Assembly (NCBI GenBank): GCA_046262935.1
Contig: JBHELT010000018.1
Coordinates: forward strand, 1 to 63,698
Direction of reading: 5' to 3'
Source: Actinomycetota bacterium
GTDB taxonomy: Bacteria > Actinomycetota > CADDZG01 > JAHWKV01
DNA: 63,698 bases
Positions within the stretch are counted from its first letter, which is position 1. Each line of letters starts with the position of its first letter. Shown piece by piece: positions 1 to 14,824 of the stretch. The position numbers and the translations under genes were made by a program. Below the pieces are notes generated by a model. The model was given only the letters and a program-made list of their open reading frames with translations, was not told where the DNA came from and did not search any database.

Positions 1-99
1 GATTCGCCAATCGCCGAGTCTCATAGCTCGAAAATCGCCTGCTGATGCGGGTCTATTCAGCTACTGCTCGTCTACCGTTTGACACGAACCACAGTTGTT
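1..99 (+). mobile_element. Right end of a second IS110-family copy, truncated by the window edge
   Basis: 1-103 is identical to 2564-2666 (IS right end plus GTTATGC); the flanks diverge afterwards. Confidence 0.9.
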
Positions 100-103
100 A
101 TGC
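97..103 (-). repeat. attC R'' box (GCATAAC on minus), interrupted by IS110
   Basis: RYYYAAC-type box 8 nt after the stop of cassette gene 112..420; same junction as 2660-2666. Confidence 0.75.
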
Positions 104-111
104 GGCACATC

Positions 112-420
112 TCAGCTGAACCGTCTGAGGTACATCGAGGAAACCACTAGCGCGCCAACTAGCGGACCCACAAAAACGACAAGAGCCACCCATTCTTTAG
201 AGACAATCGACTTAGGAGCGAAGGCTAGGATCGCAGCGCTCACCACACACGCGATCAAGAGTGCCCAACCTGCAAACGCATTTACCGGAAACCAAATCTC
301 GCGACTGGAAAGTGTCTTTTGAGTGCGAAATCCATACCAGGAATTCGGTCCAATCCATCGGAGGATGAGTGGGATGCTTACCACCGCCAAGAGAGCGTCG
401 GCGAAATAAAGTTGGCTCAA
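112..420 (-). CDS. SdpI/YhfL-family membrane protein (cassette gene)
   Basis: PNSWYGFRT..TLSS..IW..VN.FAG motif, three TM segments, GAGGAGG RBS before TTG. Confidence 0.75.
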   Translation of the reverse strand: MSQLYFADALLAVVSIPLILRWIGPNSWYGFRTQKTLSSREIWFPVNAFAGWALLIACVVSAAILAFAPKSIVSKEWVALVVFVGPLVGALVVSSMYLRRFS

Positions 421-461
421 CCGAATCCTCCTCTTCTCTGAACCCCTTGATTCATTGGTCC

Positions 462-522
462 GTATAACGGCTTGGGCGGTGAGCCGCCGGCGAAGCCGGC
501 CGGTTCCACCGCCGTGTTAGAC
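462..522 (-). repeat. attC site (61 bp)
   Basis: Minus strand GTCTAAC...imperfect GC-rich palindrome...GTTATAC, directly after gene 541..873. Confidence 0.85.
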
Positions 523-540
523 AGCATTCGCTCAAAGCGA

Positions 541-873
541 CTACCTTCCGTTTGATAGCAGAGACCAGAATACTAGGCCGGTGGCATTCCATATGAACAC
601 GCATGAGCGGAATAACCAAAGGAACCTTCGCGATTCTTTGTCCTCCCGGATCCACGTTGGTGAGAAGAAGAGCCAAACAAAAAAGCACCTATTGAAGGCA
701 AACCAGCTCCGAAAAGCTGTCGCCTCACGAGGATGGAAGAACCATCCGCGTGGTCTCCCATCGCGCTCCCATTGCTCGCGGTGATCGCGATACTCCCGTC
801 GAAGCAATTGCTCGAACCCTACAAAGGCCCCAATGAATACGAGCATTAGCGCTAAGAAGATTAAGATGTCCAA
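541..873 (-). CDS. Hypothetical membrane protein (cassette gene)
   Basis: 110-aa ORF filling the space between two attC sites; hydrophobic N- and C-terminal segments. Confidence 0.65.
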   Translation of the reverse strand: MDILIFLALMLVFIGAFVGFEQLLRREYRDHREQWERDGRPRGWFFHPREATAFRSWFAFNRCFFVWLFFSPTWIREDKESRRFLWLFRSCVFIWNATGLVFWSLLSNGR

Positions 874-880
874 CCGGTCT

Positions 881-931
881 GTCTAACGGTTTGGCCGTTC
901 ACCCGCCGAAGGTCGGGTGCAACGGCGTGTT
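881..931 (-). repeat. attC site split by IS110 (remainder at 2663-2666)
   Basis: Joining 881-931 to ATGC (2663-2666) rebuilds GTCTAAC...palindrome...GTTATGC (55 bp). Confidence 0.85.
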
Positions 932-1020
932 GATACATATCTTCCTCTGATTCCACGACCTGTTGCCGTTCTCATGCGAGAACCGAGCCCAAGGTAGTGG
1001 ACGGCACGAGGAGGTGGGCA

Positions 1021-2337
1021 ATGGAGTTCATCGGTGGGCAGCAACAAGCAGAGTTCGTGGACAAGATTCGCGACGCCAACAGAGAGCGTCTTCTGGCAGC
1101 ACCCATTGATGTGGGTAAGCATAAGGCGGCAGCACTGGTTTGTGACTTCTTCGGCGAGATCGTGGCTCCGCCATTCGAGTTCGATCTGAACGAGAGAGGA
1201 TTCACACAACTTACGACCGTCCTTTGTCGAGCTGAAGCGCAGCGTGATGCGGCCTGGACGAGAGTCGGTCTCGAGCAAGCTGGCCATTATCACGACACGC
1301 TTCTCGTGCGGTTGCAAAACGAAGGACTCGACGTCGCACTACTCAACCCAGCCCAGGTGAAGGAGAACCGTTCCCAGAATCTGTTGCGATCGATCAAGAC
1401 CGATGCCCGCGATCTAGCAGCCATGGCAGAGCTCATCATCCGCGGCAAGGGTCGCACCGCCCCAGTTGAAGATGGTCCCATGGCACGGCAGGCTGTTTTG
1501 GTGGCGCATCGACGCCGCAAGGTCAGGGCTCGCTCCGCACTCAAGAACCAGATCCTTTCGACACTCGACCTGGTGTTCCCGGGGCTCGACGGCTGCTTCA
1601 CTGACATGCTCGATACCAAGCTCGGCAATCTGTTGATCTGTGAAGCAATAACTCCCGAGCGAGTGATGCGCCTTGGATCCAAAAGGCTTCGCACCTTCGC
1701 CGGTAATCGTGGGGTAATGGTGAAACAAGCCAAGGCGGATCAGATCGTAGAGGCCGCCCGGATTGCCTTCAAACTACCTGCTACCAGGGCAGATGCGCTG
1801 CTCGAGGTCATCTCAGCCGATGCGAAGCTGCTCGAAGCACTCGAGTCCACGATTGAAACTACTGAAGCCAACCTTGCCGAGGTGCTGCCGCGAACTGCGG
1901 CAGCAGTGCTCACCTCGATGCCGCACGTGAACGTCGTGCGCGCTTCCAATTACGGCGCGGCGGTCGGTGACCACAGTCGTTTCACAAGTGCCGCTCAGGT
2001 CTATCGGCTGAGTGGGCTGGTCCCGAAACTCTACGAGTCGGCTGGACGCAGAAGACCAGGCACCGCCATCAGTCGCGAAGGAAAGGTGGAACTCAGAGAG
2101 GCCATCTTGGATCTGGGTAGAGCCCTTCGGCTCGGGCACCCAGACTTCAAGGCATATGCCCTACAGCTAAAGGAACGCGGCAAGCACAACGGGGTGATCA
2201 TGTGCGCGCTCGGAAACCGAGCCAACCGGATCGCCTTCCGCATGATGTGCGATCAAACATCTTTCGACGGGGCACTATGGCCACGCGTAAGCGGACGGAT
2301 CCCTCATGGCCGACTCGCGTCGACCAGGCCGAAGTAA
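1021..2337 (+). CDS. IS110-family DEDD transposase / bridge recombinase
   Basis: IDVGKH, GLEQAGHY, IKTDARD (DEDD); C-terminal SGLVPKLYESAG and SREGKVELR; ATG 1021 follows GAGGAGG (track start 997). Confidence 0.93.
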   Translation: MEFIGGQQQAEFVDKIRDANRERLLAAPIDVGKHKAAALVCDFFGEIVAPPFEFDLNERGFTQLTTVLCRAEAQRDAAWTRVGLEQAGHYHDTLLVRLQNEGLDVALLNPAQVKENRSQNLLRSIKTDARDLAAMAELIIRGKGRTAPVEDGPMARQAVLVAHRRRKVRARSALKNQILSTLDLVFPGLDGCFTDMLDTKLGNLLICEAITPERVMRLGSKRLRTFAGNRGVMVKQAKADQIVEAARIAFKLPATRADALLEVISADAKLLEALESTIETTEANLAEVLPRTAAAVLTSMPHVNVVRASNYGAAVGDHSRFTSAAQVYRLSGLVPKLYESAGRRRPGTAISREGKVELREAILDLGRALRLGHPDFKAYALQLKERGKHNGVIMCALGNRANRIAFRMMCDQTSFDGALWPRVSGRIPHGRLASTRPK

Positions 2338-2401
2338 TCCGTCCGCAGACGACATGTTTTCATCATCAAACAGCAATGGCGAACGCGATAAAGATGTGGA
2401 C

Positions 2402-2550
2402 GGGGCCGGGACTAACGCCGACCGTGTTATGGGGCCTTCGGGACTCCGGGTATAACAGGGCGCCTCGGCCCCTTCCCACAAGGGAGCGCGAACGTAGTTG
2501 TCAGGACCACTGAAGTGCAGGTGAGTCCGTGTAGATCAACGAGCAGCCCC
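2402..2550 (+). ncRNA. Putative IS110 bridge RNA (target-binding and donor-binding loops); boundaries approximate
   Basis: Two stem/internal-loop/hairpin modules; loop strands match attC (CGTGTTAT, GTATAAC) and the IS circle junction (AGTTGT, ATCAAC); C(UUCG)G tetraloop. Confidence 0.7.
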
Positions 2551-2705
2551 GGGAACCCATCTGGATTCGCCAATCGCCGAGTCTCATAGCTCGAAAATCG
2601 CCTGCTGATGCGGGTCTATTCAGCTACTGCTCGTCTACCGTTTGACACGAACCACAGTTGTTATGCCGCTGTCAGGAAACGTATCAGTTCGACCAGTTTG
2701 GGAGG

Positions 2706-2891
2706 TTACTGACCTTCATTTTGCTGGCTGTTCTCAGACCTAAACTCCATAATCTCTTTTACCCACTCGAAGCACTCGTTGCAAATTCCCAAATCAACGT
2801 CGTTGGAGGGAACGACTATCGTGCCCACTTCATCTTGCCGCTTATTGCAAAAGAGGCATTTGACTGCTCGTGATTTTGGCTCGGTGACCAG
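2706..2891 (-). CDS. Stand-alone ClpX C4-type zinc-finger protein (cassette gene)
   Basis: CLFCNKRQDEV...GICNECFEWVKEI resembles ClpX ZBD; probable CTG start at 2891 after GAGGGGG (track start 2936). Confidence 0.6.
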   Translation of the reverse strand: MVTEPKSRAVKCLFCNKRQDEVGTIVVPSNDVDLGICNECFEWVKEIMEFRSENSQQNEGQ

Positions 2892-2905
2892 GGAATCCCC
2901 CTCGG

Positions 2906-3328
2906 TTACGCTGGGCGTGTGGCGATTGCGACACAATCAGCAACCGACCCACCGCTTGCGCGACAAATCCTGTAGGTGGTTAGGTTGATTACGGGAGCAT
3001 TATGCAGGCAGAGTCGCGGATCTTGGCATGCCTGGCCAAGAACGAAATCAACGCCTTGATTGGCAAGACCAACGCCCTGATCGGAAAGCCCAAGGGCGGA
3101 GTGTAATGGCTCGGTACCCTCCAATTGGTGATCTGTAGACTCAAGCGTCTGCGCCGTACCTGGGTCGATGCAGGCTAACGTGTCGAGCCCCGAAGGAGGC
3201 AACCGTATCGGGATAATACATGAAACGATATCGCCCGGGTCGGCGGACGCGCTGAACGGCAGTTGAATAACTGCTGCGACTGAAAATAGCAAAGCTAGCC
3301 ACAATGAACAATATCTTCTCATTCTCAA
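2906..3328 (-). CDS. Hypothetical secreted Cys-containing protein (cassette gene)
   Basis: Signal peptide ending ASA; six Cys in the mature part. Confidence 0.6.
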   Translation of the reverse strand: MRMRRYCSLWLALLFSVAAVIQLPFSASADPGDIVSCIIPIRLPPSGLDTLACIDPGTAQTLESTDHQLEGTEPLHSALGLSDQGVGLANQGVDFVLGQACQDPRLCLHNAPVINLTTYRICRASGGSVADCVAIATRPA

Positions 3329-3446
3329 ACTCCCAGCATGTCTGCGGGACCTTATCGGGCCATTATGTATTTGTCAAAACATAGTGTTCGATCGTCCTAC
3401 ATGGTCCTCGCAAAAAGGGTGTTCCATCAATCTTCGTTAGCTGTCG

Positions 3447-3507
3447 GTATAACGGATTGGCCGCTCAGCCGCCGCCGAAGGCGGTCGGTTGCCGCGGCGT
3501 GTTATGC
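3447..3507 (-). repeat. attC site (61 bp)
   Basis: Minus strand GCATAAC ACGCCGCGGCAACCGACCGCC TTC GGCGGCGGCTGAGCGGCCAATCC GTTATAC, with an unpaired A after CCG as in canonical attC. Confidence 0.88.
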
Positions 3508-3803
3508 AGTTGAGATTCCTTCTCGGCGGGTTCTCTAAGATTTCGGTTAGCACTTTGGGTGCCAAGTTGGCGCAGGCGATGGGAGTAGAAATACCCCGAG
3601 TAGAAGAGGAAGAGCGCCGGGGTGAAGAAAACTATCGGCTCGAGCTTGATATCCCAGAACGACATGACTTGCGCTGCGACTAAGAAGGTACCCCAGCCTG
3701 CAATGCCTAGCCACCAAAGTTTGACACTACGATTCCACTTCTTCGAGGTCATCGGACGACGAAACCCCATACGTTCGTCGAGGCGATTTAGTTTCTCAAG
3801 CAA
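3465..3803 (-). CDS. Hypothetical membrane protein (cassette gene), reads into its attC
   Basis: GGAGG RBS plus TTG; two TM segments. Confidence 0.6.
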   Translation of the reverse strand: MLEKLNRLDERMGFRRPMTSKKWNRSVKLWWLGIAGWGTFLVAAQVMSFWDIKLEPIVFFTPALFLFYSGYFYSHRLRQLGTQSANRNLREPAEKESQLHNTPRQPTAFGGG

Positions 3804-3820
3804 TCAGGTACCTCCCATCT

Positions 3821-3893
3821 GCATAACGGACTTGGCGCTCAGCCGCCACTTGGCGCGTAGCTCCAAGTGGTCGGTTGCCGCGCCGGGTTAAAC
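3821..3893 (-). repeat. attC site (73 bp)
   Basis: Minus strand GTTTAAC...CCACTTGG/CCAAGTGG hairpin...GTTATGC. Confidence 0.88.
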
Positions 3894-3944
3894 AGCAACA
3901 TTGCGCGCGACCTGCAAAGTCCAACCGTTTTCACGAATACCCAT
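3888..3944 (-). CDS. Putative 18-aa mini-ORF MGIRENGWTLQVARNVAV (small cassette)
   Basis: GAGGGG RBS, ATG 3944, TAA stop inside the R'' box GTTTAAC. Confidence 0.4.
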   Translation of the reverse strand: MGIRENGWTLQVARNVAV

Positions 3945-4044
3945 GGTCTGCGCCCCTCATCACGACTCGGCCCCAATTATCGCGGGCCTTAGCTTTGAAA
4001 CCATCGATCACACGACACGCGTGAATCCGCACGACGAAAGGTCT

Positions 4045-4097
4045 GTTTAACTCTTGTATGAACAGACCTGGTAAACCCGGTCCCCGGCGTGTTAAAC
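4045..4097 (-). repeat. Degenerate attC or attI-like site heading the array
   Basis: GTTTAAC ACGCCG...TTCATAC AAGA GTTAAAC; perfect outer boxes, weak internal symmetry. Confidence 0.55.
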
Positions 4098-4220
4098 GCA
4101 GGGCTTGGAGCGGGCGGGGTGATGGAAATGGCCCTTTGAACAGCGGGTTTGAGTCGGTCCATGGAGTGTCCCCCGTCGTTATGCCGCTATGCCGGTCGGT
4201 ATAAGCGCGTTTCAAACTCG

Positions 4221-4305
4221 TGTCCGAGCGGGGATTTGAACCCCGATGAACTTGCGTTCACTAGGCCCTCAACCTAGCGCGTCTACCTAGTTCCGCCACT
4301 CGGAC
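4221..4305 (-). tRNA. tRNA-Leu (anticodon GAG), CCA not encoded
   Basis: Acceptor GTCCGAG/CTCGGAC, anticodon arm CTAGG-TTGAGGG-CCTAG, long variable arm, TTCAAAT T-loop. Confidence 0.95.
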
Positions 4306-4338
4306 GATGGAACCGCACGATTATAGACGCCCTAGAAG

Positions 4339-5931
4339 CTACCGCCTCCATGCCCACAGGTTCCAAAACGGCCCATCGACAGTAGCGTTCGCCGTTGGCC
4401 CAACAACCCCATGATCGAAACCGATGAACCAATCGCTCTCGAACATCGGAAGCACAGGGATATAGGCGGCGATCGACTTGGCGACCGCCTTTACAGATCC
4501 TTCCGATGATGCTGCGGCATCCAATCGAGCATCGATGTCATCCGAAGCAAACCCGGTGAGGTCCATACCCTGCGGACTGATCCTGTCCGAACGAAACCAG
4601 TCACGAAGGTCAACTGATGGCGATCCGCGGTGCTCCCAAAGCGCCATGTCGAAGGCCGATTCCCTGCGCCAGCGAGAATACAGTTCTTGTGGAGCTACCT
4701 GGGCAAGATCGATCTCTAGCCCCGCATCTTCTAGTCCCTTCTGGATCGCTCGAACGACGGATCCGGCCACGCTGCTGTTGGTCGTCACCAGCAAGGGTGA
4801 CGTCGCAGCTTTCCGAACGAACTTCCCGCCGGCACCCTTAGTGAATCCTGCTTTCTTGAACGCATCGCCGGCAGCGGACACATCTTTGGTAAAGGACTTG
4901 AAGGAATCATCACGGATCTGCGGCGTCAACGAATCGAGTCCCCTGCCCTGTTCCCTGATCAGCGCGTCAACGATCCCCTGCCGGTCTATAGACCTTGAAA
5001 CTGCCTCTCGAAACGCTTGGCTGGAACCCGGTTCCCGCTTCATGTTGAAGGCTAGTTCCCACCACGACGAACCAGCAGCTCGATCGAATCTAACGCCCTT
5101 CATCCGCGCCAGGCGGTTCGACAGGTTGGGCTCAGTTCCGCTTACCATCACGGCAACCGTTCTATGCTGCAGTAGGAAGATGGCGGTATCGATGTTGTCC
5201 ACGAACTCGATGCGCACATCTTGAAACACTGGCGAGTGTTTCCACCATTTGGGATTTCTCACAAGGTCAACCTCTTTGCCTCTTATCCATTGCTTCACAA
5301 GATAAGGACCACCCGAAAACGTTGGCGGCGATCGCAGGGCACCCTCGATGTCTTGGCCCTCGAGTAGATGTTTTGGCAAGATGAAATCGCCGGAAGAGAA
5401 GAGATCCTCCCAGGCAGACGGCAGTCGCGAGAATTCGACCCTTACCGTGTGCGTTCCTACAGCGACTACGTTTTTAACCTCGGAATAAACGGCTGCATGC
5501 CCCAGCCGAGTCTTCCGCCCCTTGACGGTATTCCACGTGAAAACGATGTCTTCGGCGGTGATCGGCTTACCGTCCGACCATACGGCTTTGGCATCTAAAC
5601 GATAAGTGACACTTGGAGTCTTCCTTTTGTCTTGCGAAGGCCTTGGAACTTGCGCCAGACCGGCGACATAGCGGAGTTTGGGATCCACATCAAGTAGGGT
5701 GGGAAGCACCGGTCGCAAGATGTCAAGGGTTGCGTCTGAACGTCCATCGAACGAATACGGATCGAATGAAACTGGCTCTTGTGGATAAGCGATGGTTAGG
5801 CTTCCCGAGGCATCCGCAGGAGTTGCCCGAACTTGTCTTACTGCAGGCGTGCGCTTCCTCGCCAATGCGAAGGCAACACCACCTGCGATCAATAACAGAG
5901 CAAGAAGCCCTACCCCTACCTTACGTGTCAT
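4339..5931 (-). CDS. Peptide/nickel ABC substrate-binding protein (family 5)
   Basis: EPVSFDP, WSDGKPITAEDIVFTW, GGPY motifs; ATG 5931 likely (track 5991). Confidence 0.9.
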   Translation of the reverse strand: MTRKVGVGLLALLLIAGGVAFALARKRTPAVRQVRATPADASGSLTIAYPQEPVSFDPYSFDGRSDATLDILRPVLPTLLDVDPKLRYVAGLAQVPRPSQDKRKTPSVTYRLDAKAVWSDGKPITAEDIVFTWNTVKGRKTRLGHAAVYSEVKNVVAVGTHTVRVEFSRLPSAWEDLFSSGDFILPKHLLEGQDIEGALRSPPTFSGGPYLVKQWIRGKEVDLVRNPKWWKHSPVFQDVRIEFVDNIDTAIFLLQHRTVAVMVSGTEPNLSNRLARMKGVRFDRAAGSSWWELAFNMKREPGSSQAFREAVSRSIDRQGIVDALIREQGRGLDSLTPQIRDDSFKSFTKDVSAAGDAFKKAGFTKGAGGKFVRKAATSPLLVTTNSSVAGSVVRAIQKGLEDAGLEIDLAQVAPQELYSRWRRESAFDMALWEHRGSPSVDLRDWFRSDRISPQGMDLTGFASDDIDARLDAAASSEGSVKAVAKSIAAYIPVLPMFESDWFIGFDHGVVGPTANATVDGPFWNLWAWRR

Positions 5932-7498
5932 CTGCGGCGGGCTTGAACCTGGCGATCTCGAATGTTCCTTCGAGGTCAACGTAGAAACCATCGACTGCGC
6001 TGGATGCTACGAACCTGTTCCTGAAACTCCCGATGGGCACCACGACCGCATCCTTGGTGATCCTTGACTCCAGCGCTGCATAAACCTTCAAACTCGATCG
6101 AGATCTTGGTTGTGCCCGCGCCGCCGTTATCGCTTGGTCGACATCGGTTGCGCTATATCCGAAATGGTTGTCGGTGGATCCAGTCCTGAACAAACCGCTT
6201 ACGAACCAGTCTGCGAGCGGATACTCTGCAACCCATCCAACCCGATACATGTCTACCTCACCCTTCTGCAATGAGTCCAAGAAATCTGTCAGAGGCAGTG
6301 GGGCCAGTTGAACCGATATCCCAATCCCTTCGAGTTCGGCCTTGATCAGTTTCGCCATCGTCTCCTGGGGTTCTCCGCTTTGATATGCGAAACGGATCGA
6401 TGGCTGTACGCCTGATTCGGCTGCGGTTTGGGTCACCAAAGCTCTTGCCTCAGCTACCCGGTGTTCGCATAACTTCCCGCACGAACCCTCGGTCCTACCG
6501 GGCAACCCTTGAGGTATCAGCGACGTCGCAGGCCTCATCGCATCATCGAAAACGGAATGGGCGATCGCTTCGCGATCGATGGCCATGCTGACCGCCCGCC
6601 GCAGACGGATGTCGCGGACCCGTCGGATGTCGAAGCCAAGATACAGCTGGGCTGCCAGCGGCCCGAACCCTTCCGTCCCGTACCGCCGCGATGCGGCCTC
6701 CGCGCTCGACGAAGGCACTTCGCTCACATCAACCCGGTCGGCCTCGAAGTCCGAGTACGCCCCCGTCGTTTGTTCGTATATCAACAGCTTGACCGTCTGA
6801 TAGGCCGGGGCGGAGCCCCAGTACCGACGATTCCTCTCCAGGGTGATGTCGGCGCCTGGTTGCAATGACCCCTTCACCTGGTAGGGCCCGGTGCCAACGG
6901 GATGGTCCTTGAATGCGACAGGATCCAGTGTGACGGCAGCCTTGGGGACCGGCGCGGTTGCCGGATGCGTAAGAACGTAAGGGAACTCGAACCATGCCGA
7001 CGTCAACTTGATCTCAACGGTCGATGGATCGATTGCTCTCAATCCCTCAAGCTCCGTGGCGGTGGCCTTCACTCCAACGGCCGCGTACCCAACTATCGAT
7101 TCAAGCAGGAACCCAACCTCTGAACCCGTCTGTTTGCGCGCCAAACGATCGAGGGAGAACACGACGTCGTCTGCGGTGAGGGTGGTGCCATCGTTGAAAC
7201 GAACCTTGGGTCTCAAGTGGAACACGAAGCGCGTTCCGCCATCGAGCACTTCCCATCTGATAGCCAGTCGCGGCTTCAATGCGAGGGTCGTGGGATCCAC
7301 CGCCACCAAGGTATCGAACAATTGTTTGTCAACCAGCGTTCCGGCAGGATCCTTCACGAGTGGAGGGTCAAGGCTCGAGGGTCTTCGTATGGCAACACGC
7401 AATGTAGAGGCCTTGGCCACCGAACCCGACGGCGCGCATGCTGCGCTGGCCACGACGCACGCGAGCGCAAGGAATACCCAGAACCTGCGGTGCCTCAC
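5921..7498 (-). CDS. Peptide ABC substrate-binding lipoprotein (family 5)
   Basis: Lipobox AAAC; PSSLDP, FNDGTTLTADDVVFS, PVGTGPY. Confidence 0.92.
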   Translation of the reverse strand: MRHRRFWVFLALACVVASAACAPSGSVAKASTLRVAIRRPSSLDPPLVKDPAGTLVDKQLFDTLVAVDPTTLALKPRLAIRWEVLDGGTRFVFHLRPKVRFNDGTTLTADDVVFSLDRLARKQTGSEVGFLLESIVGYAAVGVKATATELEGLRAIDPSTVEIKLTSAWFEFPYVLTHPATAPVPKAAVTLDPVAFKDHPVGTGPYQVKGSLQPGADITLERNRRYWGSAPAYQTVKLLIYEQTTGAYSDFEADRVDVSEVPSSSAEAASRRYGTEGFGPLAAQLYLGFDIRRVRDIRLRRAVSMAIDREAIAHSVFDDAMRPATSLIPQGLPGRTEGSCGKLCEHRVAEARALVTQTAAESGVQPSIRFAYQSGEPQETMAKLIKAELEGIGISVQLAPLPLTDFLDSLQKGEVDMYRVGWVAEYPLADWFVSGLFRTGSTDNHFGYSATDVDQAITAARAQPRSRSSLKVYAALESRITKDAVVVPIGSFRNRFVASSAVDGFYVDLEGTFEIARFKPAADDT

Positions 7499-9126
7499 CT
7501 TCCCAACTCGCGCAGAACTGGGTCACCGAATAGATCCGTTGGCTTATTGATCGCGGCGACAACGCTCGTCCTGAACCCGACGTGATCGACCCCGAACCAG
7601 ATGGGAAGGATGGGAACCGATTCGCAAAGCGCCGATGCCGCCCGCGCATAGATCGCGGCGCGCTCGGAGTCCGAAACGGTCGCTCGCGCTTTCTTCATAA
7701 GCATGTCGAAGCTCGAGTCGCTGAATCTTTCGTAGTTATCGAGGCTGCCGGTAGAGAACAATGGATCGAGGATAGCTTCGGGCGACGGATACTTGAGCGA
7801 CCATGCCAAGCGGTATGGCCCATCAGGCCCATCGCCGGCGAGGATGTCGAGGAATACCTTCCAATCGTCCGATCTCAAAGTCGATGTGACACCGATGCTC
7901 TCGTTCCACGACTTGATGAGCGGCCGCAACCACGCCTCATGGCCCCCATCGGAGTTCGTCCTCACGGTCATAGTCACCTTCGATGGGTCTATCTTGGAAA
8001 GGGTCAGTTCGCGCTTCGCCTTCGGTCGGTCCGGAACCCTTGGAACCGACGTTAAGCAATCAGATGCCTTCGATGCTGGTCCCGCCGTTGGTGGGAGCAT
8101 CCCGGTTGCGATCAGGCGCGTCCCAACCAGAACCCCGTCAACTATCGCCTGCCTGTTGATAGATCGATCAAGCGCAACGCGGAAATGCGGATCGTTGAAA
8201 GGAGGTCGCGTGACCGGCAAGCCGATGTAGGACACGAGCCCGTTCGCGGCAGCCTGAACCGAGATGCCCGCACGCTTCGCTCTTGCGATCTCATCGACCG
8301 GAACCTCAGCCACATCGGCTTTCTTAGCGGCGAGGGTCTTGAACACATCAACTGGGCTCTTGCCGAATATGAATTCGATCCTGTCGTACCAACCACGACC
8401 AGCACGAGACATAGAAGGCCTCATCCCCTGATAAGCGGTGTAGCGAGTGAGGCCTAGGCCATGGCCCTTCTCCCATGGTTTGGCCAGCATGTAGGGCCCC
8501 GTACAAGAAGGCGCATCCCCAAACGACCCTTTGTCCACTTCCTCCTTGGGAACCGCAGTGCCCGCGGTTGGATTGGACAAGATGGTGGGTAACTCCGCGA
8601 ATGGCTCCGAGGTTTCGACAGTAAGGGTTTTGTCGCCAATCGCCTTCACTCCGGAGAGAGTGGGAGTCTTGTCTGTCCTTAGATCAAGGTAACCTGCCAC
8701 TTTCTCGAACAAGAAGTGCTGGGCAGAACCCGTCTTTGCAGATACGAAACGTGAGATCGAATAGACGAAGTCCGACGCCGTTACCTCGCGACCGTTATGG
8801 AATTTGATCCCGGTTCGCAGGTGGAATGTGAAGTGGCGCGCATCGGGTGATACATCCCAAGAGGCTGCGATATCGGGGACGAGGCGCCCGGTCGTTGGTT
8901 CGAACGTGACCAACGTGTCGCATAGCTGCTTCAACACCAACACAGCGGCCCGGCTATTGGCGGCTACAGGGTCGAGCGATTCGGGTTCGAGCGAAGCGAC
9001 GGTCAACGTGCCCCCCACCCTCGGTAGCCGGTGAGGCGAAGACTCGACGGCCGAGGGATTGATCGCACAGGCGGGGAACGCGACGGCGAACAGGGCCAAG
9101 GCAACCCATCGTCTTACTGAAATCAC
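7495..9126 (-). CDS. Peptide ABC substrate-binding lipoprotein (family 5)
   Basis: Lipobox; EPESLDP, FHNGREVTASDFVYS, CTGPY. Confidence 0.92.
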   Translation of the reverse strand: MISVRRWVALALFAVAFPACAINPSAVESSPHRLPRVGGTLTVASLEPESLDPVAANSRAAVLVLKQLCDTLVTFEPTTGRLVPDIAASWDVSPDARHFTFHLRTGIKFHNGREVTASDFVYSISRFVSAKTGSAQHFLFEKVAGYLDLRTDKTPTLSGVKAIGDKTLTVETSEPFAELPTILSNPTAGTAVPKEEVDKGSFGDAPSCTGPYMLAKPWEKGHGLGLTRYTAYQGMRPSMSRAGRGWYDRIEFIFGKSPVDVFKTLAAKKADVAEVPVDEIARAKRAGISVQAAANGLVSYIGLPVTRPPFNDPHFRVALDRSINRQAIVDGVLVGTRLIATGMLPPTAGPASKASDCLTSVPRVPDRPKAKRELTLSKIDPSKVTMTVRTNSDGGHEAWLRPLIKSWNESIGVTSTLRSDDWKVFLDILAGDGPDGPYRLAWSLKYPSPEAILDPLFSTGSLDNYERFSDSSFDMLMKKARATVSDSERAAIYARAASALCESVPILPIWFGVDHVGFRTSVVAAINKPTDLFGDPVLRELGR

Positions 9127-9172
9127 TCCGGCAATCTATCTCAAGCACGTGCGAACCGACCGACATCTGTGA

Positions 9173-10774
9173 TCACGAACGCGACGCCGACCTCAGTATC
9201 GGAGTGCCGAAGAGATCGAGCCTGGTGGACCCAACGCTGTGTACGGCATCCGAGAAAACCCAATGTCTGACCCCGAACCAAAGAGGCGCGCCCGGCATCA
9301 GCTGACAAATGCGGTTCTCCGCTTGCTGCCATTGAACATCTGCCCGGGTCGGATCCACTTCTGCCCTTGCGCTGTCTATGTCTGCGTCGACCTGGGCGTC
9401 GGAAAATGACATCGTGTTGCGCGGGGAACCCGATCTCACTAAAGCACCGAAGCGGTCGTCGGGGACCGGTAGGCGTGGATCGTTTACCACGATCCATATG
9501 CCAGACGCGCTGTGACCGGCAAGCGAAGTGCCAAAACCGCCCGGATCGAGGGGCTGGAGTTTCAGATCTATCCGGATCGCATCTTTCACCTGCACCTCGA
9601 TCGCCTGAGCTACCAATCGCGAGATCCGTGAGGAATCGAATATGAGTTCCAGGTTGGACTTCGCAGGATCGATCCCTGTCGAAGCGAAAATAGTCTTGGC
9701 TCTATCGGTATCGGCGATCTTGTGCAGGGAGTCCGAGCACACGGATGCGCGGTCTGTTTCATCGGGCAACCATTGGGTCGCCGACTGACGCTGATCACCG
9801 AAGGCCGCATCGATGAGCACCAACCTGTCCAACGCCAGTGAGATGGCCAGCCGCAATCTGGGGTCCGCGGTTGCTGGCTTCGTGACGTCGAACGCAAGAT
9901 AGGTCATCTCCGGAGTGTTGCGGCGTGCGTAGCCCTTAAGCGATCGAGCTTCGACCAGCCGAGAGTCTGGAACTTGGCTCACTGCAACGGTTCCCGCCTT
10001 GAATGCGTCGAAGGCCTCCTCGATGGATGCGAACAGATGAAAGTCGATCCGGTCAGCCGCGCCGTGCCCAGACTCCGTGAAAGCCACATTCGCGCTTCTG
10101 CTCGATGTCGCGCGCGTGAGCGTTACTGAGTTATCCGAAACCCCTTGGAACTTGTATGGGCCTGCGCAAGGCGGGGAAGAGTTCGCCACGGCAGCATCTC
10201 TCTCAACAGATTTGGGGCTGAGCGGAATGAGGGCCGGGTCCGCCAATACAGAAACCATGTCAGACGACGGTTCGCTGAATCGGATCGCTATCGACGAGAT
10301 CCCCACCGCGGTTACTCCAGGAAGGTCGCTCGTTTGCCCCGATCGCACATCTTGGAACCCCTCTATCCGGCTCAACAACGAAGCCGACGGTGAAGCAGTT
10401 GCTGGTCGAACCACGCGCGACAGCGCTTCTCTGATGGCCGGTGCATCCACGGGAGTGTCATCGACGAACTTGACCTTCGGACGAAGGTCAAGAACCAGTG
10501 ATCGAGAGTCTTTGCCAAAAGTCCAACCCTTGGCCAGGGCTGGTCGCGGTTTGCCAGTTTCGGGGTCAAGGCCAACAAGCCCATCACAAGCGGTCCGCAA
10601 CATGAGCAATGCCGATTGAGTGGTCGCTTTGGCCGGATCGAGGTCCCCAGGAGCGAGCGTTCCCACGGACAGCGATCCGCCCCCCGTTTTCGTGACAGGC
10701 GCGACGGCGCCTTTTGGACCACAGGAACCGATCAACAAAACCAACGCCGAAACGGCGATGAAGCGTCGTATCAA
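9173..10774 (-). CDS. Peptide ABC substrate-binding lipoprotein (family 5)
   Basis: Lipobox IGSC; DLDPA, CAGPY; TTG start overlaps the oppF stop (track 10804). Confidence 0.9.
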
Positions 10775-11865
10775 ACCACGGTCTTGTGCTTGGCGAAATG
10801 ACATGCTGCGAATTGCCCCGGCGAGTGCTCTTCGAGTTCGGGTTCCACGTCAACGCACACCTTGGCCACCTGCCGATGCACCACTTTCCCGATGGTAACC
10901 ACCTGCTGTTCCCCGGCGGCCGCGACCTCTTCGCTCCTGAAGCATCGTGTGTGGAATCTGCACCCCGGCGGCGGATTCGCAGGACTCGGGACATCGCCGC
11001 GAAGGATCACGCGCTGCCTCTGCTTCTCTTTGGATGGGTCGGGGATAGGCACGGCTGACAGCAACGCCTGCGAATACGGATGCATCGGGCTCTGGTAAAC
11101 CGCGTTCTGCGGGGCGAGCTCAACAACCTTGCCCAGATACATGACCAGGACATCATCGCTGATATGCCTGACCACCGACAGATCGTGCGCGATGAAAACG
11201 TAGGTGAGGTGTCGCTCGGCCTGAAGATCCTCCAGTAAGTTGATTATCTGAGCTTGGATCGAAACATCCAATGCCGACACAGGTTCATCGCAGATGATTA
11301 GTTTGGGCTCGAGCGCCAAAGCTCTCGCGATGCCTATCCGCTGCCTCTGCCCACCGGAGAACTCGTGGGGATATCGATTGCCGTGCTCCGGGTTCAGCCC
11401 AACCCTGTCGATAAGTTCCGATATCTTCCCTCTGCGCGCGGCGCGGGCAGACCCGTGAACGATCATGGGCTCGGCGATGATGTCGTTGACCGTCATCCTC
11501 GGATTCAAAGATGCGTAAGGGTCTTGAAAGATGATCTGCATGTCTCGCCGCAGTTCGCGCATCGCATTGTTATCTAACGAAGTTATCTCTTGGCCCTCGA
11601 ACCACACCTTGCCCGCTGTGGGCTCGAGGAGACGCAGGATGCATCGCGCCAGCGTCGACTTCCCGCAACCCGATTCACCCACGATCCCAAGGGTTTCCCC
11701 GCGACGGACCGTGAAGCTCACACCATCGACCGCTTGGACCGCTCCCACCTTCCTGCGTAGGAATCCCTTCGTTATGGGGAAGTGCTTGACCAATCCTTCG
11801 ACGCGCAGGATCTCTTCACCCTCTGCCGGGTCCTTCGGCGCCCGCGCTTCGGCGACCTGGCTCAT
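10771..11865 (-). CDS. oppF: Oligopeptide ABC ATPase
   Basis: [25 protein letters not shown]-terminal Cys motif. Confidence 0.93.
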
Positions 11866-12884
11866 CCGGCCTGCTCCGCAACCAATGACACCGGGGGTTT
11901 CCAATCTGGTTTGTCGGCGAAGTGGCACGCAGCTATGTGGTCGGTGGTAGTGGTAGGCCGAAGGGTCGGGTACTCATGTCTGCAGATGTCTTCGACGAAA
12001 GGACATCTTGGCGCGAATGGGCAATGGTGGAGTTCCTTCAATAGCGACGGCGGGGCCCCCCGTATAGGGAGCAGTCTCTCTTTCCGCTCCTGATCGAGCC
12101 GCGTGATCGAGGTCATCAATCCCCAGGTGTAGGGATGTTTGGGTTCGTAGTAGATCTGGTCGCATGTCCCCATCTCAGCAACCTTGCCCGCGTACATCAC
12201 CATCACTCTGTCTGCGACGCCCGCGACGACTCCCAGGTCGTGAGTGATCAGCATGATCGAGGAATCGAACTCGGCCTTCACCCTCAGCAGAACGTCCAGT
12301 ATCTGGGCTTGAATGGTGACGTCTAGGGCTGTGGTCGGCTCGTCGGCGATCAGAAGATCAGGGTTGAGCGCGACAGACATCGCGATCATCGCGCGCTGAC
12401 GCATCCCTCCAGAGAACTGATGGGGGTATTCACGCGCACGCTCATCGGGACGGGGGATGCCTACCAATTCGAGCAGTTCGACAGCCTGGCGCATCGAGGC
12501 CCTCTTGTTGGCCTTCGTGTGAGTTCGATAGACCTCGGCGATCTGGCGCCCAACCGTGAACACCGGGTTGAGTGCAGTTAGCGGGTCTTGGAAGATCATC
12601 GCGATCCGGTCGCCTCTAAGATCTCGCAGCCGATCCTGTTTCATCTTCAGCAGGTCCGTGCCCTTATAGAGAACCTGACCGCCGACAACTTTGCCGAACG
12701 GTTTCGGTATCAGGTTGAGTATCGACAGGGCGGTGACGCTCTTGCCAGACCCAGACTCACCAACCACGGCGAACAGTTCGCCGGGAAAGACGTCGAAACT
12801 GACATCGTCGACCGCACGAACGATCCCGTCCTCGGTCGAGAACTGGGTGCGCAGGTTGCGAACACTGAGCAGAGGTTCGATCAG
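11862..12884 (-). CDS. oppD: Oligopeptide ABC ATPase (probable CTG start)
   Basis: [16 protein letters not shown]; conserved N-terminus [19 protein letters not shown] lies upstream of the track start 12767. Confidence 0.92.
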
Positions 12885-13801
12885 CCCAATCTCCCGGCGG
12901 ACGTCGGGTCAAGGGCGTCGCGCAGACCATCACCGACGAAGTTCACACACAGAACCGTTATCAAGATCATCAGGCCTGGGAACCACACCAACCATGGCTC
13001 GGAGAGCATCGAGTCTTGGGAGCCCGAGAGCATGTTGCCCCAAGTGGCCGTTGGCGGCTGGATACCAAAGCCCAGGAACGAAAGCGTCGATTCTGAAAGG
13101 ATCGCGAGAGCGATCACCAGGGTCACGTTCACGATGATCGGGCCGAGGGTATTGGGAAGTATGTGTTTCATCATCATGCGTTTGGAGCTAGCGCCCGATG
13201 CCCTTGCGGCTTCCATGTATTCCTTCTCTTTGATCGACAACGACATTCCGCGCACGATGCGAGCGACAGGCATCCAACCGACCGCGGACAAGATGATGAC
13301 GATGTCCGATATCCCGCCCTTCAAAGCTCGCGCCGCCATCATCGCGACCGCCAAAAACGGAAGCCCTAGAAAAAGATCTGTGACCCGCATCAGCGCGTTG
13401 TCAACGAACCTTCCATAGAAACCGGCCATCACCCCCACCGCAGTTCCGATCAGCCCCGATGAAAGGGCAACACCAAGCCCCACCGCGAGAGAGATCCTTC
13501 CCCCAAAGACAACGCGGCTGAATTCGTCTCGCCCCAGTTCATCGGTTCCCATGAGGTGTCTTAGGCTCGGGCCCTCACGAGAGTGTTTCAAGTCAAGGTC
13601 GTTCGGCTTATAGGGGGCAACGAGCGGGGCGAATATGGCGACCAAGTAAAAAACGACGAGGACGATACCGCCGACCATCGCGGCGCGATGCCTGCGGAAA
13701 CGTCGCCATGCGATCTGTCGCGTCGTCCTCGACGTTGTTTCCGGTCCCTGTTCTGGCGCAGCGGGCACCGGATCAGCCACATGTGTTCCGATGGTACTCA
13801 T
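12881..13801 (-). CDS. oppC: Oligopeptide ABC permease
   Basis: HLMGTDELGRD, EAARASGA, LSFLGFGIQPP. Confidence 0.93.
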   Translation of the reverse strand: MSTIGTHVADPVPAAPEQGPETTSRTTRQIAWRRFRRHRAAMVGGIVLVVFYLVAIFAPLVAPYKPNDLDLKHSREGPSLRHLMGTDELGRDEFSRVVFGGRISLAVGLGVALSSGLIGTAVGVMAGFYGRFVDNALMRVTDLFLGLPFLAVAMMAARALKGGISDIVIILSAVGWMPVARIVRGMSLSIKEKEYMEAARASGASSKRMMMKHILPNTLGPIIVNVTLVIALAILSESTLSFLGFGIQPPTATWGNMLSGSQDSMLSEPWLVWFPGLMILITVLCVNFVGDGLRDALDPTSAGRLG

Positions 13802-13810
13802 GTTGTGCTC

Positions 13811-14824
13811 TCAGTCATAACGGATCCTTGGATCGAGTGACGCATAGAGGATGTCGGCTAGAAGATTGAAAGCCACGATCAATCCGGCTGTCACCATCAA
13901 CCAGGAAAGAACGATCGGGTGGTCGCCGCTCAAGAGCGAATCGACGAATATCCCTCCCATCCCTGGCCAAGAAAATATCGACTCGGTGATGATAAGTCCT
14001 CCGAACAGCCCACCAACATCTATAGCCACCACGGTGACCAGCGGGATCAAGGCGTTGCGGAGCCCATGCTTCAAAACGACTTTCGTCTCAGAAACTCCCT
14101 TCGCCCGAGCCGTACGCATGTAATCAGAGCCCATGACTTCGAGCATGCTCGCGCGCTCGTATCTACCCCATCCGGCGACTAACTGAACCATGAGAGCCAG
14201 TGATGGCAACGTCGCATGCCTGAGGAAATCGCCCAAGCTGAATCCGATCGTGCCAGGTCTTCGAAGGCCGCCGGTGAAGAAAAGGGGTTCCGACTCCAGA
14301 AATGCCGGCAGGAAGTGGAATGTATGGCGAAGGCTGCCGAGCCAGCGTTCCAGATAGAACCCCATCACCAATTGAAGGATGAGCCCGAACCAGAAGATCG
14401 GCATGGAGATGCCGAAGAAGGAAGCGCCAGTGAAGGTGTAGTCCAACTTCGAATAAGGCCTGACCGCCGAGTAAACCCCCACGGCGATCGCGAAGAACAG
14501 CGACAAGATCACCGCCATGGCCATCAGTTTCAAGGTGTTGACGAAACGTTCGATCAGGATGGGCTTGACTGGTCTTTCGTATTGAAGCGAGATCCCCCAG
14601 TCCCCTCTCGCGAAGTGAGAGAGCCATGCCACGTACTGCTCGGGCCCTGACTTATCCAGGCCCAAGGCCGCCTTGACTCGCGCAACATCCTCCTGGCTCA
14701 TCCGGGGGTTGATGAGCGCCCTCGTTGGGTCCGTGGTCAATCTCATGAACGTGAATACGAGCACCGATGAGACGATCAAGATCGGTATGGAGATGAGGAC
14801 GCGCCTTACGATGTAGGAGAGCAT
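13811..14824 (-). CDS. oppB: Oligopeptide ABC permease
   Basis: GDWGIS, YMRTARAKG, KHGLRNALIP, LDPRI. Confidence 0.93.
   Translation of the reverse strand: MLSYIVRRVLISIPILIVSSVLVFTFMRLTTDPTRALINPRMSQEDVARVKAALGLDKSGPEQYVAWLSHFARGDWGISLQYERPVKPILIERFVNTLKLMAMAVILSLFFAIAVGVYSAVRPYSKLDYTFTGASFFGISMPIFWFGLILQLVMGFYLERWLGSLRHTFHFLPAFLESEPLFFTGGLRRPGTIGFSLGDFLRHATLPSLALMVQLVAGWGRYERASMLEVMGSDYMRTARAKGVSETKVVLKHGLRNALIPLVTVVAIDVGGLFGGLIITESIFSWPGMGGIFVDSLLSGDHPIVLSWLMVTAGLIVAFNLLADILYASLDPRIRYD

Follow-up and report, generated by a model that had tools for sequence, protein, structure and literature searches.

Cassette arrays that stand apart from an integrase gene have been described as clusters of attC sites lacking integron-integrase (CALIN; Cury et al., 2016, PMC4889954), and cassette insertion outside att sites is documented as well (Loot et al., bioRxiv 10.1101/2022.09.11.507474). 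In the Actinomycetota, integrons have been thought to be almost absent. As described for IntegronFinder 2.0 (PMC9024848), complete genomes of Actinobacteria carried no complete integrons, one In0 and a few CALINs. Cury et al. (2016, PMC4889954) had reported the same lack of complete integrons, and according to a study of metagenome-assembled genomes (MAGs) from 2026, the methods of which mention the inverted-integrase type, there is a 'virtual absence' of integrons in this phylum (PMC13323075). A review from 2021 counts the Actinobacteriota among the integron-bearing phyla (PMC8618304). Here, we analyzed a stretch of 63,698 nucleotides (the window), which is the entire contig C18 of an uncultured actinobacterial genome (G000, assembly GCA_046262935.1). 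Its positions 97-4208 carry on the minus strand what the sequence identifies as a genuine integron gene-cassette array with five cassettes, headed by an attI-type platform. We consider it probable that this array is a secondary, intI-less array (formally a CALIN) of a native actinobacterial integron and that it is served in trans by a single integron integrase (IntI) encoded elsewhere in the genome. In the literature, we found no description of this integron lineage or of attI-headed arrays without intI; the supplementary tables of the surveys may list some.

Like a CALIN, the window array comprises at least two attCs with cassettes and no intI nearby, and the same genome holds a complete integron (PMC4889954). 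Four matches to our attC model and one remnant of an R'' box were found within 3.8 kb. A profile search gave no IntI match within about 4 kb or elsewhere on C18, with tRNA-Leu and genes for ABC-transporter binding proteins on the head side and the distal side cut by the contig end. What we did not find described for CALINs in that paper is the head of the attI type, a paralogue of the stretch that follows the intI of the genome. Its attCs consist of three intact hairpins and two sites split by one attC-targeting insertion sequence (IS) of the IS110/IS1111 type. All att sites listed in the original prediction, which had been made from the sequence of this stretch, are present where it placed them. 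The array is composed of the following features (boxes in minus-strand direction; the slash in G/TT marks the crossover point):

97-467, minus strand: cassette 5, at least 371 nt, with an open reading frame (ORF) for an SdpI-family membrane protein at 112-420 (Pfam SdpI, E=2.7e-11)
103 to 97, minus strand: R'' box GCATAAC of the cassette 5 attC; the second IS copy cuts directly behind this box
462-522, minus strand: attC of cassette 4, R'' GTCTAAC (522 to 516), R' GTTATAC (468 to 462), 90 bits, E=1.7e-23
468-886, minus strand: cassette 4, 419 nt, with a 110-aa ORF (541-873) without family match
881-931, minus strand: 3' part of the cassette 3 attC, R' GTTAGAC (887 to 881), 47.5 bits at 875-942, parted from its R'' box by the IS
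2660-3452, minus strand: main part of cassette 3, R'' GCATAAC (2666 to 2660), ORFs at 2706-2936 and 2906-3328
3447-3507, minus strand: attC of cassette 2, R'' GCATAAC (3507 to 3501), R' GTTATAC (3453 to 3447), 86.6 bits
3453-3826, minus strand: cassette 2, 374 nt, with a 112-aa ORF (3465-3803) without family match
3821-3893, minus strand: attC of cassette 1, R'' GTTTAAC (3893 to 3887), R' GTTATGC (3827 to 3821), 72.7 bits
3827-4050, minus strand: cassette 1, 224 nt, without a convincing ORF
4045-4208, minus strand: attI-type platform forming the array head, 164 nt, Box A at 4208 to 4194, crossover G/TT of GTTAAAC (4051 to 4045)

Repeat finding yielded two families of direct repeats, which span both halves of the sites at 459-524, 878-937, 3444-3509 and 3818-3895. 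At 97-103, next to the second IS copy (window 1-99), the R'' remnant (GTTATGC on the plus strand) stands alone. Every site, when read in minus-strand direction, is laid out as a ..TAAC box, an imperfect GC-rich bulged stem, a short variable loop and a GTTA.. box. The bulged bases are mainly located on the R''-L'' arm, which we take to be the canonical attC pattern. An attC covariance model was seeded with 13 aligned sites from the window, from other G000 contigs and from relatives. RNAalifold folded these 13 sites into one hairpin of 22 pairs, and compensatory changes were observed in 13 of the 22. In the window, the model scored 90 bits at 456-528, 86.6 bits at 3441-3513, 72.7 bits at 3815-3899 and 47.5 bits at the IS-split site (875-942), which agrees with the integron-type cassette array that had been predicted. 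The hairpin fold of the attC at 462-522 reached z=-2.9. When the 2.56-Mb genome was searched at E<=1 (150 of 1153 first-look candidates scored), we obtained 20 matches on five contigs: eight on C5, six on C14, four on C18, one on C73 and a weak one on C75. For 83 model-aligned sites, 91.2% of the cells paired versus 73.3% in shuffles (0 of 500 as high), pairing was 24-40% with the partners slid and 17 of the 22 pairs changed on both sides; this alignment was fitted to the covariance model and hence leans towards it. An Rfam scan of the window returned two tRNAs only and nothing in the array at gathering score.

The set of relatives comprised 40 genomes in addition to G000, with f1 denoting the family of G000 and f2 and f4 denoting sister families. 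Two of the genomes used are unpublished, G021 (tree, model seed, junction test and tallies) and G116 (one tally), and the conclusions do not rest on these alone. At E<=1e-6, attC sites were detected in 11 of the 41 genomes, which are G000 and members of f1 (9/19) and f3 (1/1), and in none of the 20 genomes of the sister families (f2, 0/6; f4, 0/14). The entry boxes of the window cassettes have the form TTxxxx after G/TT. In cassettes 1 to 5, the number of mismatches between this box and the complement of the cassette's own R'' box, read from the sequence, is 0, 0, 1, 0 and 1, in agreement with the original claim, and the two boxes inside one site differ at 1-2 positions. This complementarity indicates that the cassettes entered as circles. 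GC-rich hairpins between small genes might also be non-integron intergenic palindromes, such as a REP-like element or a terminator, but this explanation is close to refuted. The sites cluster by a bona fide IntI in G000, in the intI loci of G002, G006, G015 and G021 and at 13 of 18 loci from the rest of the phylum, they carry TAAC/GTTA boxes, their entry boxes covary with the R'' boxes of the same cassettes, and the 20 genomes of the sister families lack them.

The IntI of G000 is encoded on contig C73 (895-1971, minus strand) and comprises 358 amino acids. It was the sole over-cut-off match to TIGR02249 in the genome (922-1857, minus strand; 421 bits vs. a cut-off of 265), and none of 14 control genomes gave a match over this cut-off. 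With VchIntIA (2a3v), the protein aligned end to end (E=6e-76) with a single 1-residue gap, and the GLRL, HTLRH, GH and VYTH motifs are retained. The alignment also covers the region that we take to hold the extra helix of IntI. Past the intI stop codon, a platform, a 130-aa ORF, an attC and an ORF running off the contig follow on the same strand, and this attC (88.9 bits) lies 570 nt downstream of intI. G000 thus appears to hold a complete integron, with intI and cassettes co-oriented. The array had been predicted to be without integrase. This is correct for the window but not for the genome, in which the intact IntI and its adjacent attC are found on C73.

An intI upstream of the array on the cassette strand, which we take to be the Treponema-type orientation, was observed on C73, in the relatives and at 13 of 18 intI loci of other families of the phylum; of the remaining five loci, four had no attC and one had a weak match on the opposite strand. 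At the loci of the relatives, all 37 attC matches were located downstream of intI and on its strand (G002, 15; G015, 10; G006, 5; G021, 1; intI-less heads, 6). The G000 system resembles the 'inverted' integrase sedentary chromosomal integrons (PMC13323075) in that intI and cassettes share one strand, with the array downstream of intI, and in that the cassettes are small and mostly of unknown function, some being toxin-antitoxin-like. It differs from them in its host phylum, in its Actinomycetota-only IntI clade and in its long platform of about 165 nt.

IntI over the cut-off was found in 7 of the 41 genomes (f1, 5/19; f3, 1/1; f2, 0/6; f4, 0/14, counted without G000) and in 23 of 401 genomes sampled evenly across the phylum. 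In a quick IQ-TREE analysis of 101 sequences, which had no outgroup so that 'clade' is conditional on the root, the G000 protein fell into a set of 16 rows with an SH-aLRT of 99, and all rows of this set come from Actinomycetota (f1, f3, f11, f13). The remaining eight IntIs of the phylum sample were placed elsewhere in the tree, among other phyla. The nearest IntI from outside the phylum is at most 57% identical to the G000 protein, compared with 59-70% inside the 16-member set. On NF011946, which judging from its name we presume to be the class-1-type equivalog model, the C73 IntI scored 291.6 and stayed below the cut-off of 435. With class 1 mobile integrons, the system shares an IntI-type recombinase and attC cassettes; it differs from them in this score, in the distance to IntIs of other phyla, in its chromosomal location and in its same-strand layout, and no resistance cassette was seen. 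Since the IntI belongs to an Actinomycetota-only set and the attC type is common across the family, these data support the view that the system is native to the Actinomycetota and not an imported class 1 element, as had been proposed together with an attC style of its own. We thus have an uncultured actinobacterial genome with a complete integron and intI-less arrays in a phylum regarded as nearly free of them. The recurrence of the system in 5 of 19 other f1 genomes, the IntI frequency in the phylum sample, the same-strand arrays at 13 of 18 loci and the phylum-confined clade suggest that the integron barrier in Gram-positive high-GC bacteria is not general, and these lineages offer a natural system to ask which host factors integrons need.

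The stretch at 4045-4097 had been counted among the att sites that separate the genes of the array. However, the attC model gave no match there, though the sequence is repeated in the genome, and we read 4045-4208 as the attI platform of this lineage, judged by its sequence signature, with 4045-4097 as its crossover end. In the window, Box A (GCGC TTATAC CGACC) is followed by several TAAC-type boxes; Box A and the crossover-proximal part may be one site, or there may be a fixed first unit without an ORF. Three copies of the platform were found in G000: on C73 behind the only intI (164 nt, bounded by the stop codon of intI and by the GTT), on C76 (52373-52536) and in the window, 11 nt past tRNA-Leu(GAG). 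The C76 copy is 96.3% identical to that on C73 over 164 nt and adjoins the 5' end of an unrelated gene, with no intI there. Identity between the window and C73 platforms is 93% for window 4041-4099 (C73 727-786) and 88% for window 4184-4209 (C73 868-893), the latter block containing Box A; between these two conserved blocks, the two platforms are unalignable. The homology of the three copies stops at G/TTA, where three different cassettes follow. A corresponding layout behind intI is common to other genera and families: Box A (..TTATAC.GACC..) comes soon after the stop codon, and 110-200 nt with further TAAC-type boxes, often direct repeats, lead to ..AG/TTA.

When we compared the hexamer after ..AG/ with the R'' box of the first downstream attC, it was exactly complementary in 12 of 16 heads, with five different hexamers among them; three heads showed 1 mismatch and one head showed 3. 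Non-self pairs of head and R'' box matched in 31 of 240 cases, and a count of 12 was reached in none of 100000 permutations. For C73, the junction used in this comparison was identified by eye. Among the heads with the crossover signature are that of the window and the intI-less heads G002:C32 and G015:C1. Platform pieces without intI and followed by attCs were observed in relatives at G002:C32, G002:C44 and G015:C1, the latter in a 7-contig assembly, and no second platform copy was found in G006. By tblastn, no intI remnant was detected beside the intI-less heads of the relatives, the window and C76 (all E>0.1); in the G002:C44 head, about 25 nt resemble, by eye, the 3' end of intI. Metagenome scans with the 30-nt tRNA/platform junction and with a degenerate attI-core pattern gave no match. 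An attI head carried without intI is possibly a trait new to integrons, and such heads bear on the origin of CALINs. As a separate observation, most heads carry a purine-rich AGGAG/AAGAG immediately before the crossover (e.g. L219, L231, L222), and the start codon of the first cassette often lies 9-15 nt past it. It is speculative that this motif is a ribosome-binding site which attI supplies to the first cassette.

On its other side, the platform borders a tRNA gene:

4220-4305, minus strand: tRNA-Leu(GAG) (ARAGORN; Rfam tRNA 50.5 bits), 3' end 11 nt from the platform

The 11 nt between this gene and Box A are unique. Comparison of the locus among relatives showed no attC near the tRNA-Leu(GAG) of G015, G006, G002 and G017, so that these genomes lack an array there. 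In G002, the tRNA is likewise flanked by a solute-binding protein (SBP) gene, which indicates that the tRNA side of the locus is ancestral. Downstream of the tRNA, G006 and G002 have a gene block that is colinear with C14 of G000 (from 2900 to 377), and above this block C14 carries a minus-strand array of six attCs (8195-11519). The simplest layout would therefore be tRNA-Leu, platform, window cassettes, a gap holding IS copies, C14 cassettes and conserved genes, and the array at the tRNA is probably a lineage-specific insertion of more than 10 kb. Joining C18 to C14 via the IS was rejected: the assembly has a single 5' end of this IS, and the element at the end of C14, although of the IS110 family, is a different one, with the 3' end of its transposase gene at 14000-14396. 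The C14 array itself is interrupted by an IS3-family element (11868-13039; rve, HTH_Tnp_1). The integron arrays of G000 are IS traps, and this causes assembly breaks. A second copy of the tRNA 3' end, the mark of an island, was not found on any contig of G000. On G002:C52, the full tRNA-Leu(GAG) gene (11619-11706) is followed about 1 kb further downstream by a 55-nt partial copy (12672-12726), which marks a small element integrated at the tRNA that heads the window array in G000.

The junction between array and tRNA might be an artefact of assembly or binning, the array lying in reality behind an intI or in another organism. The assembly (2.56 Mb, 57.8% GC, 94.9% complete) does consist of 110 contigs, and the platform is a three-copy repeat. 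However, the window platform has diverged (the 93% and 88% blocks) and is separated from the tRNA by the unique 11 nt, so that no long shared repeat is present at the join. The GC content of the array (53-56%) compares with 57.8% for the genome, neither the IntI clade nor the attC type extends beyond the phylum sample, intI-less heads also occur in a 7-contig relative, and synteny puts an array between the tRNA and the C14 genes. Taken together, these data make an artefact highly improbable. C18 itself carries the housekeeping genes uvrA, uvrB, uvrC, polA, rpsA and gltB, whose nearest relatives are in Actinomycetota MAGs, and the actinobacterial-type chromosome that had been predicted for this stretch is in line with this.

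According to the reading that we prefer, a secondary array served in trans, the C73 IntI would act on folded attC strands and on the G/TT of each platform. The attC hairpin of a circular cassette would recombine with the platform G/TT, leading to insertion at 4051/4050, and cassettes would be excised by attC x attC recombination. The outcome would be the five cassettes seen here and probably more on C14, and minus-strand transcription of their genes would start from a promoter inside the platform or further upstream. We infer this action in trans, present-day activity, the promoter and the route by which the head came to the tRNA. More tentatively, the attI platform itself may be portable, its copies seeding new arrays at unrelated chromosomal sites, in this case the 3' flank of tRNA-Leu, so that one IntI services a distributed, multi-headed integron; we regard this extension as possible but doubtful. 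If true, integrons of this lineage would be organised and would spread in a way that is undescribed for proteobacterial integrons. The array resembles attG insertions/SALIN (bioRxiv 10.1101/2022.09.11.507474) in having cassettes away from the platform and as a route to intI-less arrays. Unlike in the cases described there, the attI-type platform itself has been copied, and its left boundary is not at G/TT.

Several points weigh against our preferred reading. The attC model was derived from these very sites and those of relatives. The homology of the heads begins within 1-2 nt of the intI stop codon, at GCGC and not at G/TT, and a simple IntI-mediated insertion therefore does not explain the copying of the platform. 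The complementarity at the junction of the window head would also be expected after joint copying of the head with its first cassette. A sigma-70-like promoter was not detected in 1-4400, a scan that does not cover actinobacterial promoters. The link between C18 and C14 comes from synteny, and both contig ends lie inside IS elements. Finally, two of the five attCs are disrupted by IS, which fits decay as well as activity.

This last point leads to the alternative of a fossil: recombination of the array would have ceased, IS attack would be slowly degrading it, and it would be what remains of a second integron or a piece translocated from the main one. A head without intI, the IS insertions in two of five attCs and the lack of a clear ORF in cassette 1 would be in line with it. 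So would G015 (near-complete, 7 contigs): its intI is in two pieces with 2 TGA stops (G015:C4:127849-128783), yet its main array still counts at least 10 attCs and contig C1 bears another array. On the other hand, the three intact attCs of the window score like the attC by IntI (72.7-90 vs. 88.9 bits), an intact IntI is present in the genome, and tblastn detected no remnant of intI next to the head (E>0.1). Moreover, the near-identical heads of C73 and C76 are followed by different first cassettes, which means that one or both have exchanged cassettes since they diverged. We consider a fossil unlikely, though less so than an artefact.

The IS that splits the array is present in two copies:

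932-2662, plus strand: IS110-family element of about 1.73 kb, IS1111-type layout, with a DEDD transposase ORF at 997-2337
1-99, plus strand: 3' end of the second IS copy, the contig breaking inside it; window 1-106 is 99% identical to 2564-2669

In BLAST, 1-103 was 100% identical. The transposase matches Pfam DEDD_Tnp_IS110 and Transposase_20 as well as NCBIfam NF033542 (144.5 bits vs. a cut-off of 140), and its ORF is flanked by 65 nt before it and 325 non-coding nt after it, the layout given for the IS1111 type (PMC11187229). A GTT triplet at both ends of the IS leaves the ends ambiguous by 3 nt, and repeat finding listed no inverted repeat between them. Each of the two copies (2/2) immediately follows the R'' box GCATAAC of an attC, and their orientation is identical. 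The 9-mer CGTGTTATG spans the uninterrupted target and occurs twice in the window, once in an intact attC (3498-3506) and once within the IS, in its non-coding region (2423-2431). The number of occurrences expected is 0.19, and among 100 shuffles, 2 reached a count of 2. About 20 nt beyond it, a second stretch of the IS matches the other strand (by eye). The fold of the non-coding region was no better than that of shuffles (z=-0.9).

For ISKpn4 and ISPst6, a guide RNA directed at attC has been shown (PMC11187229). The element described here resembles this IS1111-attC group in its DEDD transposase and the long non-coding region downstream of tnp, in using one attC end and one orientation for insertion and in the target-identical 9-mer of the non-coding region (PMC11187229). 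It differs in its actinobacterial host and its actinobacterial attC type, and a seeker RNA is a candidate here. Because its non-coding region matches the intact target as in these two elements, the data suggest that the IS carries a guide RNA aimed at attC. Such an RNA-guided element targeting the R'' end of attC should block recombination at two attCs of the array. With the candidate guide RNA, it would extend RNA-guided attC targeting to a new phylum.

Among the small minus-strand ORFs of the window cassettes, two only matched Pfam: the SdpI-family ORF at 112-420 and the ORF at 2706-2936 in cassette 3, which encodes a ClpX-type zinc finger. The other ORF of cassette 3 (2906-3328; 140 aa) had no Pfam match, and the cassette 4 ORF (541-873) had no homologue in any of 20 relatives searched. 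For the SdpI-like protein, the only homologue in 20 relatives was encoded at G007:C199 186-485 (62% identity), with no attC adjoining. The G007 gene may be a non-cassette source gene or a cassette without its site, and cassette sharing via this protein is not supported, given that no attC neighbours the G007 gene. The other G000 cassettes, on C5 (70-3287), C14 (8195-11519) and C73, encode mostly unassigned small proteins and DUFs, and the products on C5 and C14 include DUF6429, DUF1905, a HicA-like toxin domain and a PIN-like DUF5615 protein. Small cassettes of the toxin-antitoxin type are typical of sedentary chromosomal integrons.

Outside the array, the best matches of the window PolA were uncultured Actinomycetota MAGs (64% and 62% identity), and the same was true for UvrA (76%, 75% and 75%). 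Cultured actinomycetes ranked after the MAGs for both proteins, at about 60-65% identity. Adjacent to the tRNA, window 4339-10804 contains four minus-strand ORFs of 525-550 aa in a row, the first of which is SBP_bac_5.

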